10,631 nt of DNA from a virus (lineage: Duplodnaviria; Heunggongvirae; Uroviricota; Caudoviricetes). Position numbers and translations under genes: made by a program. The DNA is taken from the IMG/VR virus record IMGVR_UViG_648276652_000022; one strand, given 5' to 3'. Under the pieces are notes generated by a model that searched no databases, was not told where the DNA came from, and saw nothing but the letters and a program-made list of their open reading frames with translations. Positions 1 through 10,631 of the stretch are shown piece by piece. Numbering within the stretch: position 1 is the stretch's first letter; each line of letters starts with the position of its first letter.

Positions 1-1254
1 ATGCTGGAACAAATGGGCATTGCCGCGAAGCAAGCCTCGTATAAATTAGCGCAACTCTCCAGCCGCGAAAAAAATCGCGTGCTGGAAAAAATCGCCGATG
101 AACTGGAAGCACAAAGCGAAATCATCCTCAACGCTAACGCCCAGGATGTTGCTGACGCGCGTGCCAATGGCCTTGGCGAAGCGATGCTTGACCGTCTGGC
201 ACTGACGCCCGCACGGCTGAAAGGCATTGCCGATGATGTGCGCCAGGTGTGTAACCTCGCCGATCCGGTGGGGCAGGTAATCGATGGCAGCGTACTGGAC
301 AGCGGCCTGCGTCTTGAGCGTCGTCGCGTACCGCTGGGGGTTATTGGCGTGATTTATGAAGCGCGCCCGAACGTGACGGTTGATGTCGCTTCGCTGTGCC
401 TGAAAACCGGTAATGCGGTGATCCTGCGCGGTGGCAAAGAAACGTGTCGCACTAACGCTGCAACGGTGGCGGTGATTCAGGACGCCCTGAAATCCTGCGG
501 CTTACCGGCGGGTGCCGTGCAGGCGATTGATAATCCTGACCGTGCGCTGGTCAGTGAAATGCTGCGTATGGATAAATACATCGACATGCTGATCCCGCGT
601 GGTGGCGCTGGTTTGCATAAACTGTGCCGTGAACAGTCGACAATCCCGGTGATCACAGGTGGTATAGGCGTATGCCATATTTACGTTGATGAAAGTGTAG
701 AGATCGCTGAAGCATTAAAAGTGATCGTCAACGCGAAAACTCAGCGTCCGAGCACATGTAATACGGTTGAAACGTTGCTGGTGAATAAAAACATCGCCGA
801 TAGCTTCCTGCCCGCATTAAGCAAACAAATGGCGGAAAGCGGCGTGACATTACACGCAGATGCAGCTGCACTGGCGCAGTTGCAGGCAGGCCCTGCGAAG
901 GTGGTTGCTGTTAAAGCCGAAGAGTATGACGATGAGTTTCTGTCATTAGATTTGAACGTCAAAATCGTCAGCGATCTTGACGATGCCATCGCCCATATTC
1001 GTGAACACGGCACACAACACTCCGATGCGATCCTGACCCGCGATATGCGCAACGCCCAGCGTTTTGTTAACGAAGTGGATTCGTCCGCTGTTTACGTTAA
1101 CGCCTCTACGCGTTTTACCGACGGCGGCCAGTTTGGTCTGGGTGCGGAAGTGGCGGTAAGCACACAAAAACTCCACGCGCGTGGCCCAATGGGGCTGGAA
1201 GCACTGACCACTTACAAGTGGATCGGCATTGGTGATTACACCATTCGTGCGTAA
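1..1254 (+). CDS. proA: Gamma-glutamyl phosphate reductase (glutamate-5-semialdehyde dehydrogenase), full length, 417 aa
   Basis: Uninterrupted 417-aa ORF starting at ATG position 1; translation recognised as enterobacterial ProA over its full length. Followed by an imperfect inverted repeat (1259-1271 / 1304-1316) that may be its terminator. Confidence 0.95.
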
Positions 1255-1368: not shown

Positions 1369-1444
1369 GCCGATATAGCTCAGTTGGTAGAGCAGCGCAT
1401 TCGTAATGCGAAGGTCGTAGGTTCGACTCCTATTATCGGCACCA
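1369..1444 (+). tRNA. thrW: tRNA-Thr (anticodon CGU), prophage integration target
   Basis: 76-nt sequence GCCGATATAGCTCAGTTGGTAGAGCAGCGCATTCGTAATGCGAAGGTCGTAGGTTCGACTCCTATTATCGGCACCA read directly; cloverleaf-compatible, anticodon loop carries CGT, ends in CCA. Position immediately 3' of proA matches the known thrW locus. Confidence 0.93.
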
Positions 1445-1458
1445 TTAAAATCAATAAG

Positions 1459-2622
1459 TTACACATCATTAGTACCTTCCTTATTTTTTGACTGGGACAA
1501 ATTTGGGACCGATGGGTTCAGGATCGAGTCTATTTGCCGTGCGTGTTCGGTAAGGTGATTAGGTGCAAGGTGAGCATATCGACGAACCATTTCGATAGAC
1601 TCCCAGCCTCCCATTTCCTGTAACACTGACAACGGGACTCCGGCTTGAACCAGCCAACTTGCCCAGGTGTGTCTCAAGTCGTGAAATCTGAAATCATCAA
1701 TACCAGCCCGTCTCAGCGCCGCTTTCCAGGCTGTGTTTGCGTCATACCGCATCTTCCTTACTGTTGGCGCTTTCGTTCCGTCTGGTTTGGTACAGCTTTC
1801 CTTGTACACAAATACCCAACGGTGATGATTCCCGATTTGTTTTTTCAATACGCGACATGCAGTATCATTCAGCGCAACGCCAATTGCGCGGTTTGATTTA
1901 CTCTCTTCCGGGTTTATCCATGCCACCCGGCGCTGCATATCTATTTGTTGCCATTCAAGGTTGATGATGTTCGAGCGTCTTAAGCCTGTTGCCAGTGCAA
2001 ATTCAACAACAGACTTTAATGGCTCCGGACATTCATCAATCAGCCTTTGTGCTTCATGGGGCTCCAGCCAGCGGATCCGTTTATTCTTTGGTTGAGGCAC
2101 TTTAATAATTGGTGCCTTATCCAGCATTTTCCATTCACGCTCTGCGGCTCTTAGTAGGGCCTTTATAAATGAAAGATGCGTAGCCTTCGTTGCAACGGAC
2201 GCTGGTTTTGGCGTGTATTCTGGAACAGGTTTCCCTTTTTTTCTGCATGCTTCTGCCCTGAGTTTCCAGTTTTCCTCATGACGCCGGTTCGTCATTTTCT
2301 GCATTGCTGAATAAATTTTTGATTCAGTAATGTCTCTTAGTTGCATTCCTGCGAAATGTTGAAGCCAGAATCCGATCCGGCTTTTGTCATCGTCCAGTGA
2401 TTTTTTATGTGCTTTCTCTTCAAGCCACCTGACACACGCTTCCTCGAACGTTATATCAGGTATTTCACCAAGTTTGCTGACCCGCCATGCTTCAGCCTTT
2501 AGCTTGTCATGGAGTTCTGTCGCCTGCCTTTTGTCCTTTGTTCCAAGAGACTGTTTAAATCTTTTACCGTTCGGCAATGTGAAACTGGCGTACCATATTT
2601 CACCTCTGCGGAAGAGTGACAT
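1459..2622 (-). CDS. int: Tyrosine site-specific integrase, P22-type, 387 aa
   Basis: 387-aa ORF beginning [14 protein letters not shown], recognised as near-identical in length and sequence to phage P22 Int; C-terminal catalytic region with R...HDLRHT...Y motifs. Reads toward the tRNA, 14 bp from its 3' end, as expected for an att-adjacent int. Confidence 0.95.
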
Positions 2623-2849
2623 TTTCTTTCCTCTGTTATGCCATCACCCGCGCTCACCTGGACAGTATGCAGCGGAGACTGAAGAGCCGCAATGCAGGCT
2701 TGTCGTGTTGTGAGGTAAGGAGATTTATTCTTAGTGGGATCTTTGCGTGTTGCCTGAAGACGCCCTGTGCGTATCCAGTTAATGGCAGTCGGTCTGGATA
2801 TCTTGAGAAAATGACAGGCCTCATCGAGTGTGAGGCTGTATGGCTCCAT
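2499..2849 (-). CDS. xis: Excisionase (Xis), 116 aa
   Basis: Listed ORF 2499..2933 contains an internal ATG at 2849 ([29 protein letters not shown]...) giving a 116-aa product with an HTH-like N-terminus, matching P22 Xis size; its 3' end overlaps the int 5' end. The start is inferred, and the upstream extension is rejected. Confidence 0.8.
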
Positions 2850-3154
2850 TATTTCACCTCTTGTTGTGACATTGTTGAAAAATGGATACCTGCTCGTTGC
2901 TGCCAGACGATCCAACCGAGAGTCATATCCCATGCCATGTATTCGTTATCGCCGTTTTTTGCTCTCCGACGATCTACTAAGTCACCGAAACGCTTTTCCA
3001 TGAATAATTCATAAGCTTCGCGTTCATCTGGTTCTACTTCCAGAGATAGGAGTGCGATTTCATAAGCACGGCGCTAAATATCGTCTCGCACGTCAAGGCT
3101 GCTGATACGCTCTTTAATTTCTTTAATCAGTTCTTTGTCGGTAAAAGTGGTCAT
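2849..3154 (-). pseudogene. yfdT: yfdT-like prophage gene (101 codons) interrupted by an in-frame TAG at codon 27
   Basis: Hand translation of the minus strand from ATG (3154-3152): MTTFTDKELIKEIKERISSLDVRDDI-TAG-RRAYEIALLSLEVEPDEREAYELFMEKRFGDLVDRRRAKNGDNEYMAWDMTLGWIVWQQRAGIHFSTMSQQEVK-TAA. The frame stays open for 102 codons apart from the single amber at 3074..3076. Its start shares a base with the yfdS stop (TAATG) and its stop overlaps the xis ATG. No ATG/GTG/TTG restart follows the amber. Confidence 0.5.
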
Positions 3155-3516
3155 TATGCTCCAGCCTCCGGTGCTTTTGGCATTACTGCCCAGTGAGTGA
3201 TATTGACGTTTTCAAGGTCCCCGACCTGAAATGTCCACTGCCATTCTCCGGTTTCTTTTTGTCCCCAGGTGTACCAGAGAGAACGCCAGCCAATTAGCCA
3301 GCCTTCTCCGTTAGCATCGAATAACAAAACACTTTCATTTGCTGGTGGCAGTTCAGTTGACACTGGTATTACTTTGTTTTCCTGTGCTGCACATTTAGCT
3401 TCAAGCGCATCGAATTTACGCACCAGGTATTCAGCATCTGTTTCATTTACTTTCAGATCTCGCGGTACACATCTCCCACGAAGAAACCCTTCCATTTCGA
3501 AAACATTCATGCGCAT
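3154..3516 (-). CDS. yfdS: Prophage protein, Trp-rich C-terminus (DUF551-like), 120 aa
   Basis: 120-aa ORF; size and position after yfdR match the CPS-53 yfdS gene; C-terminal GWLIGW...WYTW...W pattern. The alternative start at 3510 forms an ATGA overlap with the yfdR stop. Confidence 0.7.
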   Translation of the reverse strand: MRMNVFEMEGFLRGRCVPRDLKVNETDAEYLVRKFDALEAKCAAQENKVIPVSTELPPANESVLLFDANGEGWLIGWRSLWYTWGQKETGEWQWTFQVGDLENVNITHWAVMPKAPEAGA

Positions 3517-4170: not shown

Positions 4171-4995
4171 TCAGGCGGTGAAAGTACCAATAAAGGTTTC
4201 TACTTTGCTGTCCTTGAATTTCTCAACAAGCAGATCACGAAATTCGTTAGCCATTTCTTCCTGCACCGCCTCCAGCTGAATAATGCGCAGAACCAGTACA
4301 GGACGATCGCCAGTGATAATACTGAGGCGTAATTTAAACGGACGTTCTTTCAGACCTTCAAACGGAACGCATTTAAATTCAAATGCCACTGGCATAATGT
4401 CTTTGGTCTTCGCTTCGACAGACTCCATCAGGGAGCGTTTGCCGCTGAAGTCATTATCTTCAAAATCAGCGGTCTGGTTTGCTTCAATCGTGATTTTACG
4501 GACAGCCGCAGCCGCTTTTGTTGCCTGAATAGCGTCACCATTAGCATCAAAGCCCACAAGATAGTCGGCCCAGTCTTCAATCCATTCTGCCAGTGACTTC
4601 TGGGAGTTACGCTCGCCGTTAACAGACAACAGAGCAGAGAACGGTGCTGTCTTTTTCAGTTTGAGTGTGGCGGTGTTATCTGCGTGACCTGGTTCATCAA
4701 TAGTACCCAGGTTAAGCACACTGACGGCACGCATATTATCAGCATCGATAAAGCAGCGGGTGCCTTCATCTGCAAGATCTTTAGAATAACGGGTAAAGTC
4801 ATCGATGCTGGCAGTGGAAAGCGCACCACGGAAACGGAAGCGATTTAAATTAAATTTTTCCAGATCATGAATGCGGAAATTCTCAGGCAATGCCACAGCA
4901 TCGGCACCAATCTTACTGATAATTTCATTAACACCCTGAGCAGAAATAAGGGCATGGATTTGATTAATTGCGGTTGCGTCTAAGTTCTGAGACAT
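4171..4995 (-). CDS. yfdQ: DUF2303-family prophage protein, 274 aa
   Basis: 274-aa [24 protein letters not shown]... with GAGGA 8 nt upstream of the ATG; recognised as YfdQ-like (CPS-53). Confidence 0.85.
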
Positions 4996-5423: not shown

Positions 5424-5471
5424 TTTGCTGCTCCTCATCATATCGACCCTGCAAGGCCGATTAGTTTCTCC

Positions 5472-5560
5472 ACAAAACAGAGAAGAACACCTGCGGTGGC
5501 AGCCGCCCGGATGGATTGGGTTATGAGCCCGTCGTCCGGTGATGCTCTTCTCTGTTTTGT
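5472..5560. repeat. 15-bp perfect inverted repeat (ACAAAACAGAGAAGA / TCTTCTCTGTTTTGT) flanking a 59-bp GC-rich spacer
   Basis: Arms at 5472-5486 and 5546-5560 are exact reverse complements (checked base by base). They sit in a ~470 bp region without a convincing ORF. Confidence 0.6.
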
Positions 5561-5824
5561 AAAAAGGACGGTACCAGCCGGAAGCAAGGGTACAAACTGG
5601 TACCTCCAGGACTACACACAGCATAAAGTTGTGGTGCCGGGTGCCTCCCGGTGCCTGGCGAAGGTTGCACACCAGACGGGTGGGTATCCACAGAAGGTCG
5701 ACTGTCAGCCTCAACCTTAACCCGCGTGCGCTGAGCCGCATTCACCACAACGCTAAGGATTCTCTCTGGTTAAAAATACTTAGCTGTTATGTGCCTGCTT
5801 TTAGCCACATCAGGCGAGGTGGAC

Positions 5825-5891: not shown

Positions 5892-6326
5892 ATGTCCGGT
5901 AATATCTACACGCTGTACAAATCCCACTGTGAAAATGTTGGAAAGTATCGGGGCATTGAAATCAGTGGGGTAGTGTCATCAGTCGAAATAAGCAAAGTGG
6001 AATCAAGGGCAACATTACTTACTCTTCTGGACCTTGTCTTACATGAGCACCGGAAGAAATTCGGCACTCCCTATAATCAGTTGAATGGGAAAAAGGCTCT
6101 GGTTCACCTTATTCTGATGAAGCATCACTGGATGCCAAAACAGATTAATGAGATGAAATTTGATGAACTTCTTCTTTCAATTCAGGATGAACTCACACTT
6201 GATAAAATAAGCGTAACCGCCCAGAAATTTTTAGATTATCGAGACTGGAGATCACAAATTCATCACTTTGATGATTTTGACGAAAATGAATGGGATCCTA
6301 ATTTGTCTGCACAATATCTAAAGTAA
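5892..6326 (+). CDS. Hypothetical protein, 144 aa, AT-rich moron-like gene on the opposite strand to the surrounding early-left genes
   Basis: ATG at 5892 with AAGGA 6 nt upstream; open for 144 codons; visibly lower GC than flanking genes (by eye roughly 40% versus about 50%); acidic C-terminus (HHFDDFDENEWDPN). No family recognised. Confidence 0.7.
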   Translation: MSGNIYTLYKSHCENVGKYRGIEISGVVSSVEISKVESRATLLTLLDLVLHEHRKKFGTPYNQLNGKKALVHLILMKHHWMPKQINEMKFDELLLSIQDELTLDKISVTAQKFLDYRDWRSQIHHFDDFDENEWDPNLSAQYLK

Positions 6327-6504
6327 CATCCTGTGATAAAACCGTGATTTCCTGATCCAGTTTTTTTAAGGAGTCTATTGTTTCCTGTCGATAAGACAGC
6401 ACTTCACGAAGCTGGTTTATAGCTGCCAGCTTCTTTGCCATCCACTCGTAAATTTCCTCATTTGTGTATCCGGGCGCGACGATTTTGGGTTCTGTTTTGT
6501 GCAT
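6298..6504 (-). CDS. Hypothetical small protein, 68 aa, first gene downstream of pL
   Basis: The listed 73-aa ORF starts at TTG (6519), but TTGAGGAGG is better read as the Shine-Dalgarno GAGGAGG, 6 nt upstream of the ATG at 6504 (MHKTEPKIVAPGYTNEEIYEWMAKKLAAINQLREV...). Heptad-like, probably helical. Its 3' end overlaps the 144-aa ORF convergently by 29 bp. Confidence 0.65.
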   Translation of the reverse strand: MHKTEPKIVAPGYTNEEIYEWMAKKLAAINQLREVLSYRQETIDSLKKLDQEITVLSQDVTLDIVQTN

Positions 6505-7503: not shown

Positions 7504-7704
7504 ATGAAAGCGTATTGGGACTCTTTAACCAAAGAACAGCAGGGCGAGTTGGCCGGAAAAGTTGGCTCAACACCTGGCTACTTACGGCTGGTTTTCAATG
7601 GCTATAAAAAAGCCAGTTTTGTGCTGGCTAAAAAACTTGAGCAATGCACGTCAGGTGCAATTACGAAATCTGACTTAAGACCGGATATCTATCCGAAAGA
7701 TTAG
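7504..7704 (+). CDS. Cro-like / YdaS-family HTH regulator, 66 aa
   Basis: Listed ORF starts at 7480, but GGAGG at 7488-7492 precedes the ATG at 7504 (MKAYWDSLTKEQQGELAGKVGSTPGYLRLV...). Small HTH-like protein divergent from cI, with a C-terminal LRPDI motif as in YdaS-type proteins. Confidence 0.7.
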   Translation: MKAYWDSLTKEQQGELAGKVGSTPGYLRLVFNGYKKASFVLAKKLEQCTSGAITKSDLRPDIYPKD

Positions 7705-8305: not shown

Positions 8306-9138
8306 ACAGTTTAACGGCAAATAACCGTTTGTCGCAACAGCTGGTGGTCAGCGTCGCTGAACACGTGTTGTTACGGCATGAATGCAGATTACCAAATCTC
8401 CTGGCTGTAAGTAACCACAGAGAACTTTACCTGACTGTGGGGGGCGAGTTGTGCAGGAACTTAACCGCTGGTTTCGTGACGGAAGAGGACTTTATGTTCA
8501 TGTTATTCGTTGGGAGCCAGAAACACAGCGCGTTATCTATCTTCGCAAAGACTACCCGCATGAGTGCTTTAGCCCTTTGTGGAAATTCAGGCGTGATTTT
8601 GTTGAGTGTGAAGGACCACCAGCACATTGATTCTGCCATTCCGGGACGTTACACTGTTCAGGCACCTTATAAAGCGGGTGCCGGGATTGGCGTCCTGGAA
8701 TTGATCAAGGCGATATATGACGCGCCAGCGTCTTTTTTATCGTCCGCATTTGCTCACATCAAAGTTATGGTGGGCTGGGCGGGGGCATCGAAAGATGCGC
8801 CGGTTTCCTTGATCACCGGTTACGCCAACCCCGTTCAGTTCACCACCAGCGAAATTGGCGTTTCCGGTGGTGGAAGTATTTCACCGATCAAGGAGGCTGC
8901 CATCATGGCTACTGTCCCAGCCCTCACTCGTCTGAATGATGAAGACTTACATAAACTCAGTTATGTAACAACTGCACTACGTGCTCTGCGCAAGGTAACT
9001 CTTTCGGATCCGCAGGCACATCAGGTTCTGGTAGAAACCCTTCTTAACTTGCAAGCTGAACGTATTCGTCTGGCGGATAAGGCTAATTTTCATATTCACC
9101 GTCTCCTGAATATCAGCGGAGGGCATCGTCATGCTTAA
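8302..9138 (+). CDS. Hypothetical protein (278-aa frame); the 5' part may be over-called, the 3' part (about 8631-9138) looks like genuine coding
   Basis: Continuous 278-codon frame with an ATGA overlap to the upstream gene. From about 8631 the codons look like typical E. coli coding sequence (GCG, GGC, GAA, ATC, AAA). An internal ATG at 8905 is preceded by AAGGAGG 8 nt upstream. Conflicts with a well-formed small ORF in another frame (8451-8630). Confidence 0.35.
   Translation: MNSLTANNRLSQQLVVSVAEHVLLRHECRLPNLLAVSNHRELYLTVGGELCRNLTAGFVTEEDFMFMLFVGSQKHSALSIFAKTTRMSALALCGNSGVILLSVKDHQHIDSAIPGRYTVQAPYKAGAGIGVLELIKAIYDAPASFLSSAFAHIKVMVGWAGASKDAPVSLITGYANPVQFTTSEIGVSGGGSISPIKEAAIMATVPALTRLNDEDLHKLSYVTTALRALRKVTLSDPQAHQVLVETLLNLQAERIRLADKANFHIHRLLNISGGHRHA
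8451..8630 (+). CDS. Small phage protein, DUF4222-like pattern, 59 aa, GTG start, in a different frame from the 278-aa ORF
   Basis: Hand translation: VQELNRWFRDGRGLYVHVIRWEPETQRVIYLRKDYPHECFSPLWKFRRDFVECEGPPAH, stop TGA at 8628-8630. It fits the small phage-protein pattern D.RG..V.V......RV.Y.R..Y..EC..P...F...F as I recall it. Absent from the ORF track (under 60 aa, GTG start). Confidence 0.4.
   Translation: MQELNRWFRDGRGLYVHVIRWEPETQRVIYLRKDYPHECFSPLWKFRRDFVECEGPPAH

Positions 9139-10182: not shown

Positions 10183-10631
<449 letters not shown>

Follow-up and report, generated by a model that had tools for sequence, protein, structure and literature searches.

An amber allele (E27*) of yfdT in an SfV-like prophage at thrW of Escherichia coli

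The best-described relative of the gene considered here is yfdT (b2363) of Escherichia coli K-12 MG1655, which belongs to the cryptic prophage CPS-53/KplE1, adjoining dsdC. This gene has 101 codons, with GAG at codon 27, and stands last in the order yfdP-yfdQ-yfdR-yfdS-yfdT, its start overlapping the end of yfdS as TAATG. In K-12, multicopy yfdQ-yfdR-yfdS-yfdT inhibits DnaA-dependent replication initiation (Noguchi and Katayama, PMC4776307). YfdR binds DnaA, and yfdQ and yfdR together with either yfdS or yfdT are enough for the inhibition, yfdT being dispensable; furthermore, deletion of all four genes gave no phenotype in the assays used (PMC4776307). Downstream of yfdT in K-12, the SfV-type xis persists as the remnant ypdJ, its start reading ATA in place of ATG, and the annotated recombination directionality factor is torI.

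The Shigella flexneri phages SfV, SfII and SfIV carry the counterpart gene orf28, in the order orf30-orf29-orf28-xis-int and with the same integrase type as the prophage described below. A further point of comparison is the exo-xis region of lambda, which occupies the same place as yfdT, just upstream of xis. The genes of this region influence lysogenisation and induction (PMC3824215), and its architecture is mosaic (PMC10834534). Whereas the exo-xis genes act on lysogenisation, the functional data for YfdT come from the K-12 multicopy experiments only (PMC4776307). Genes annotated as EaA, Ea22 or DUF551 in HK022, mEp460 and Stx phages contain segments that are 80-90% identical to parts of yfdT, either nt 1-130 or nt 95-252.

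Here, we analyzed a window of 10,631 nt, by which we mean the whole stretch of DNA presented above. Its yfdT shares the gene order and the TAATG overlap of CPS-53/KplE1 and, along its full 306 nt, shares 99.0% identity with orf28 of SfV, SfII and SfIV. Unlike the K-12 copy and the three phage copies, which are intact and have GAG at codon 27, the yfdT of the window is interrupted by an amber codon. Moreover, its prophage lies at thrW, whereas CPS-53/KplE1 adjoins dsdC, and it also carries an IS100 insertion.

Prophage context and the interrupted yfdT frame

The chromosomal end of the window and the adjoining prophage genes are as follows.

1-1254, plus strand: proA
1369..1444, plus strand: thrW, tRNA-Thr (CGT), the prophage attachment site, adjoining proA
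1459..2622, minus strand: tyrosine integrase of the SfV int type, intact, overlapping the 3' end of xis
2499..2849, minus strand: xis, excisionase, intact (HTH_17; PHROG 2907, E = 1e-50)
3154..3516, minus strand: yfdS-like gene (DUF551, 120 aa), intact, its TAA overlapping the yfdT ATG

The element is a lambdoid prophage of the SfV-like type, inserted into an E. coli chromosome at thrW, with an SfV-type int and xis adjacent to thrW and downstream of proA. On the minus strand, its genes run in the order integrase, xis, yfdT, yfdS-like, yfdR, yfdQ and yfdP, followed by a cI-like/cro-like immunity region and the early rightward genes. The nearest complete genome is that of E. coli 20A24; 10,394 nt of the window align with it collinearly and without indels, at 14 substitutions, and E27* is the only protein-changing difference between the two prophages.

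Several other features of the window were also recorded. Seven of the 14 differences from 20A24 fall within 128 nt of proA (162-289, plus strand), two of them non-synonymous (S59G and G97S), and this cluster looks like a small recombination patch rather than point mutation. The last part of the window (10395-10631) consists of the terminal 237 nt of IS100kyp, an IS21-family element, from its istB side, and many copies match it at 100% identity. At the junction (10394/10395), this element interrupts a yfdN-like PerC-family gene (start 10179) at about codon 72, which makes it a second lesion of the prophage; that the window ends in an IS suggests that its source is a contig of a draft assembly. 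Rfam matches above the gathering score were obtained for the Hfq-binding sRNA isrK (8662-8738, plus strand, 64 bits) and for the C4 antisense RNA (8763-8850, plus strand, 82 bits), side by side inside an ORF annotated as "ash family protein" (8593-9138). Additionally, a hypothetical gene at 5438-5748 (minus strand) is frameshifted according to the 20A24 annotation, and the same two in-frame stops occur in the window; this lesion is an older one, common to relatives.

The yfdT locus itself comprises the following features.

2849..3154, minus strand: yfdT nonsense pseudogene frame, 101 codons and TAA, 305/306 nt identical to the intact WP_000206732.1
3074..3076, minus strand: amber codon TAG, yfdT codon 27 (ancestral GAG, Glu27)
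3077..3154, minus strand: residual N-terminal frame of 26 codons, MTTFTDKELIKEIKERISSLDVRDDI, limited to the N-terminal module, which varies across the family
2849..3001, minus strand: in-frame 50-codon ORF from Met52, the sole in-frame restart 3' of the TAG

An earlier note on this DNA had described a 102-codon frame open save for a TAG at codon 27, coupled by overlaps to yfdS (TAATG) and to xis, and both parts of that description hold. Minus-strand translation of 3154..2849 (102 codons) gives MTTFTDKELIKEIKERISSLDVRDDI, a stop, RRAYEIALLSLEVEPDEREAYELFMEKRFGDLVDRRRAKNGDNEYMAWDMTLGWIVWQQRAGIHFSTMSQQEVK and the final stop, with one internal stop, the TAG at 3076..3074, and TAA (2851..2849) as the last codon. 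The overlaps were read at both junctions: the TAA of the yfdS-like gene (3156..3154) overlaps the yfdT ATG (3154..3152) as TAATG at 3156..3152, and a second TAATG, at 2851..2847, joins the yfdT TAA (2851..2849) to the xis ATG (2849..2847). The yfdS-yfdT-xis string is thus linked by stop/start overlaps, an arrangement conserved in relatives.

That this frame is a genuine gene, rather than an ORF arising by chance, follows from its match to annotated yfdT in many complete E. coli genomes at 305 of 306 nt. Its orthology is apparent both from identity, as 97/101 residues (96%) agree with K-12 b2363 once codon 27 is repaired, leaving 4 differences in 101 residues, and from synteny, the yfdQ-yfdR-yfdS-yfdT order and the TAATG overlap to yfdS being the same. 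The uninterrupted 101-codon frame of the family is broken by an in-frame stop, the TAG at codon 27, a position that codes for an amino acid in the orthologues. The yfdT of the window thus represents a pseudogene allele within the YfdT family.

Ancestral codon, distribution and authenticity of the amber allele

Aligned with yfdT of ECCHD184, the window gene shows 1 difference in 306 nt, the other 305 being identical, and this single mismatch to intact alleles falls at base 1 of codon 27. Codon 27 is GAG (Glu) in ECCHD184, SfV, K-12 MG1655, 20A24 and every comparator checked, and none of the sense codons offered in the earlier note as examples of an ancestral state (CAG, TGG or TAC) is recovered by the homologue alignment. 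At plus-strand position 3076, the window has A where relatives have C. Read from these alignments, the mutation is a G-to-T transversion on the coding strand (GAG to TAG), that is, C to A at plus-strand 3076.

The frequency of the stop was assessed with a 61-mer centered on the TAG, searched in 5,426 complete E. coli genomes. A match was found in 914 genomes; the TAG was carried by 0/914, and 913 were exactly one base off. When the full 306 nt were searched in the same 5,426 genomes, the top matches reached 99.7%, with one mismatch. Likewise, the exact 38-mer containing the TAG (GTGCGAGACGATATTTAGCGCCGTGCTTATGAAATCGC) returned 0 matches in the GTDB species representatives, 0 in IMG/VR and 0 in the JGI metagenome contigs, and the GAG version of the 38-mer gave at least 120 matches in IMG/VR. 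The matches listed for the GAG 38-mer provided 111 evaluable IMG/VR loci. Among these, the intact 101-codon gene is present in 109/111, the upstream junction CATAATG is kept in 107/111 and the downstream junction GAGGTGAAATAATGGAG in 104/111. Across 110 intact yfdT alleles, a crude pN/pS of 0.41 was obtained, which indicates that intact yfdT is normally under some purifying selection and is, consequently, a real gene.

The earlier note had proposed a recent nonsense mutation, or early pseudogenisation, and the distribution of the allele supports this proposal, as the TAG occurs in 0 of the 914 genomes and the 306 nt hold no further change. There is no secondary decay 3' of the TAG, where no additional indel or stop is found and the 305 nt are as in ECCHD184. 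The mutation is taken to be recent because no other change has accumulated in the 306 nt.

It might be argued instead that the locus natively consists of two short genes, the TAG being the true end of the first. Gene callers often report the 50-aa ORF at 2849..3001, and 324 blocks of the collection searched list it. However, each case examined proved to be a broken or truncated 101-codon gene, with different lesions, or a gene cut by a contig end; the 50-codon ORF gets called as a gene wherever yfdT is broken. Intact copies predominate, homologues have one 101-codon gene with GAG rather than two genes with a conserved stop, and the 26-codon remnant stops short of the conserved core. The probability of a native two-gene arrangement is, in our view, close to nil.

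A second question is whether the TAG belongs to the isolate at all or is a sequencing or assembly error in a genome that truly has GAG, an alternative also raised in the earlier note. An error would agree with the lack of the TAG in the 914 complete genomes and in three further collections, and with the termination of the window in an IS100 copy, as draft contigs do. A second carrier was, however, found through the 50-aa ORF 2849..3001 in a public gene-position index. This locus (L010) lies on contig DAJALN010000024.1 of GCA_025039735.1 and has a yfdT identical to that of the window, TAG included. The locus and the window share 4,709 nt, in which only two positions differ, both in proA (444 and 1033), and the contig ends are different. 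Additionally, the TAG site lies outside any homopolymer or repeat. Since an independent assembly of a close relative has the same TAG, the allele appears to be real and inherited, and on this sequence evidence an error is an unlikely source of the TAG, to which we assign a very low probability. It may be that the carrier is a relative of the same isolate that was sequenced again, though the proA SNPs and the contig ends differ.

L010 is the one carrier of the TAG allele found beyond the window. Its contig breaks inside yfdQ, at the equivalent of window position 4709, and the window runs on uninterrupted there. A search for further carriers through the ORF at the IS100 junction, with two alternative starts, found no record in the collection, and the ProA sequence, listed in 55,200 blocks, was not lineage-specific.

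Predicted effects on YfdT, xis and int

Comparison of YfdT with the Pfam and NCBIfam models matched no family, in which it differs from the Ea22 and DUF551 proteins. PHROGs gave unknown-function families only, YfdT matching PHROG 660 (function unknown), and a profile search of PDB sequences returned 0 matches. AlphaFold2 predicted all-helical models of low confidence for both the full-length protein (pLDDT 60.6, 21 sequences) and the core (pLDDT 62.2, 121 sequences).

In family alignments, roughly the first 30 residues of the protein are variable and mosaic, and they are followed by a core, at about residues 33-88, that hardly varies and has the pattern IALxSLEVEPDERxAYELFMEKRFG..VDRRRAKNGD.EYMAWDM.LGWI.WQxRA. 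The invariant columns span 33-88 and the stop is at 27, so the product is left without the conserved part. Because the TAG directly precedes the core and the 26-residue product has none of the conserved residues, we infer that YfdT function is lost. The only restart in frame, at Met52 (ATG at 3001), has no Shine-Dalgarno-like sequence upstream.

The core is also found outside yfdT. When 1.84 billion representative proteins were searched with a profile, a YfdT core of about 52 residues was recovered in 313 clusters. Encoded in the window at 2890-3058 (minus strand), it is a portable module without a Pfam family and occurs in proteins of up to 448 aa, fused in some of these longer proteins to DUF551 and, in one, standing beside a weak, sub-threshold Ead_Ea22 match. 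Ea22 variants of Stx phages have a 63-residue segment that is absent from lambda Ea22 (PMC10834534), and the YfdT core may correspond to this segment.

A further alternative is that full-length YfdT is still made, by means of an amber suppressor or of read-through of the UAG. UAG followed by C is a weak termination context in E. coli, and a C lies directly 3' of the stop (UAG-C); the frame 3' of the TAG is, furthermore, perfectly preserved. Nevertheless, a preserved frame is expected after any recent mutation, the stop at codon 27 is conserved in no homologue, and the sole tRNA in the 10.6-kb window is tRNA-Thr(CGT). In addition, two other prophage genes of the window, 6298-6504 (minus strand) and 7504-7704 (plus strand), have TAG as their true stop. 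Taken together, these observations make continued synthesis of the full-length protein extremely improbable. On the same grounds, genetic-code recoding was rejected and programmed read-through is not supported, as the stop is not conserved and TAG regularly terminates genes of this prophage.

With translation ending at codon 27, the remaining consequence to consider is the polarity on xis and int suggested as a possibility in the earlier note. One further feature is needed here.

2855..2860, minus strand: GAGGTG, Shine-Dalgarno-like sequence of xis, 5 nt 5' of the xis ATG and inside the 3' end of yfdT

Ribosomes that halt at codon 27 leave 225 nt untranslated up to the xis ATG, so that the coupling from yfdT to xis would be lost. 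In this respect, the locus resembles classical nonsense polarity, where a premature stop lies in a gene that overlaps the next start. Unlike in the classical case, xis has its own Shine-Dalgarno sequence, and the xis junction with GAGGTG is conserved in 104/111 IMG/VR loci (among the matches listed). Typical Rho-loading sites are C-rich and G-poor, whereas the 225-nt gap is G-rich, with a C/G ratio of 0.5-1.0, and the RNA exposed has at least as much G as C. On the minus strand of the gap, no terminator-like or promoter-like site was detected, the overall counts not exceeding the shuffled expectation. Polarity is therefore predicted to be weak, since xis has its own Shine-Dalgarno sequence and the gap is without Rho-loading or terminator-like features, and from the sequence we expect a polar reduction of xis and int that is at most modest.

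The start of xis is itself recorded in two ways. RefSeq places it at the ATG at 2849 (TAATG, with the GAGGTG Shine-Dalgarno sequence), and the SfV GenBank record at the ATG at 2933, which sits 94 nt inside yfdT. The start at 2849 is favored because HTH_17 begins at residue 6 and PHROG 2907 aligns end to end. The xis ATG is replaced by ATA in K-12 and in 4 of the IMG/VR loci (among the matches listed).

Neutral decay or selection for loss of yfdT

The reading that we consider very probable is that of a recent E27* mutation in the yfdT of the thrW prophage, inherited in a small clonal lineage, with loss of function and most likely as neutral decay. According to this reading, the single-base change from GAG to TAG would end YfdT translation after 26 residues, 5' of the core, and thereby abolish YfdT function. 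The coupling of yfdT to xis would be broken, yet xis would keep its GAGGTG site, and any drop in xis and int expression would be modest at most. The intact yfdS-like gene would buffer the loss, which would then be near neutral, and the nonsense mutation would represent an early step of prophage gene decay.

The expectation of neutrality draws on the state of the neighboring genes, as yfdQ, yfdR and the yfdS-like gene are all intact in the window. Since the yfdS-like gene is intact and either yfdS or yfdT suffices in K-12, the loss of yfdT is probably near neutral, on the basis of multicopy-plasmid and deletion experiments in K-12, where the orthologue is 96% identical and belongs to another prophage. 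That YfdS and YfdT might be homologous was considered as the reason why either gene suffices in K-12 and was rejected, as BLASTP found no significant similarity between the two proteins.

Lesions of yfdT were also seen in other public assemblies. A +T frameshift at codon 39 (locus position ~2963) occurs in L004, L006 and L009, one of which differs in its downstream gene context; L005 has a change of GAA to TAA at codon 46 (E46*); in L007, the gene is cut at about codon 34 by a resistance island with an aminoglycoside phosphotransferase (strA-strB-like); and in L008, a deletion fuses another N-terminus at codon 25/26. Such independent lesions agree with repeated decay, in prophages, of an accessory gene that is dispensable.

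The same recurrence could be viewed in another way, as parallel events under selection. In that case, loss of yfdT would be favored in lysogens, either by relieving replication inhibition or by reducing xis through polarity and thus retaining the prophage. This explanation would agree with the frameshift, nonsense, insertion and deletion alleles that arose independently in other lineages, and with the inhibition of replication initiation by multicopy yfdQRST (PMC4776307). On the contrary, most copies remain intact (109/111 IMG/VR loci among the matches listed), the 913 complete genomes that are one base off the TAG 61-mer are those expected to have GAG, and a pN/pS of about 0.41 points to purifying selection on intact yfdT. 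Furthermore, deletion of yfdQRST in K-12 had no phenotype and yfdS or yfdT alone is enough (PMC4776307). The route through polarity meets the additional objection that xis has its own Shine-Dalgarno sequence and that the gap is a poor Rho-loading site. Selection for the loss is, on balance, improbable, with a slim chance of being correct, and no observation calls for it.

Under the preferred reading of near-neutral decay, E27* is an ordinary pseudogene allele of an already known prophage gene. The appropriate annotation of the locus is a yfdT pseudogene (E27*, GAG to TAG) rather than two small ORFs. The E27* SNP could also serve as a marker of a small E. coli lineage. The allele is one more data point indicating that yfdT, an accessory prophage gene located 5' of xis, is dispensable and has been repeatedly lost. 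If the polarity on xis were true, the locus would also provide a small example of a nonsense mutation starting to immobilise a prophage.
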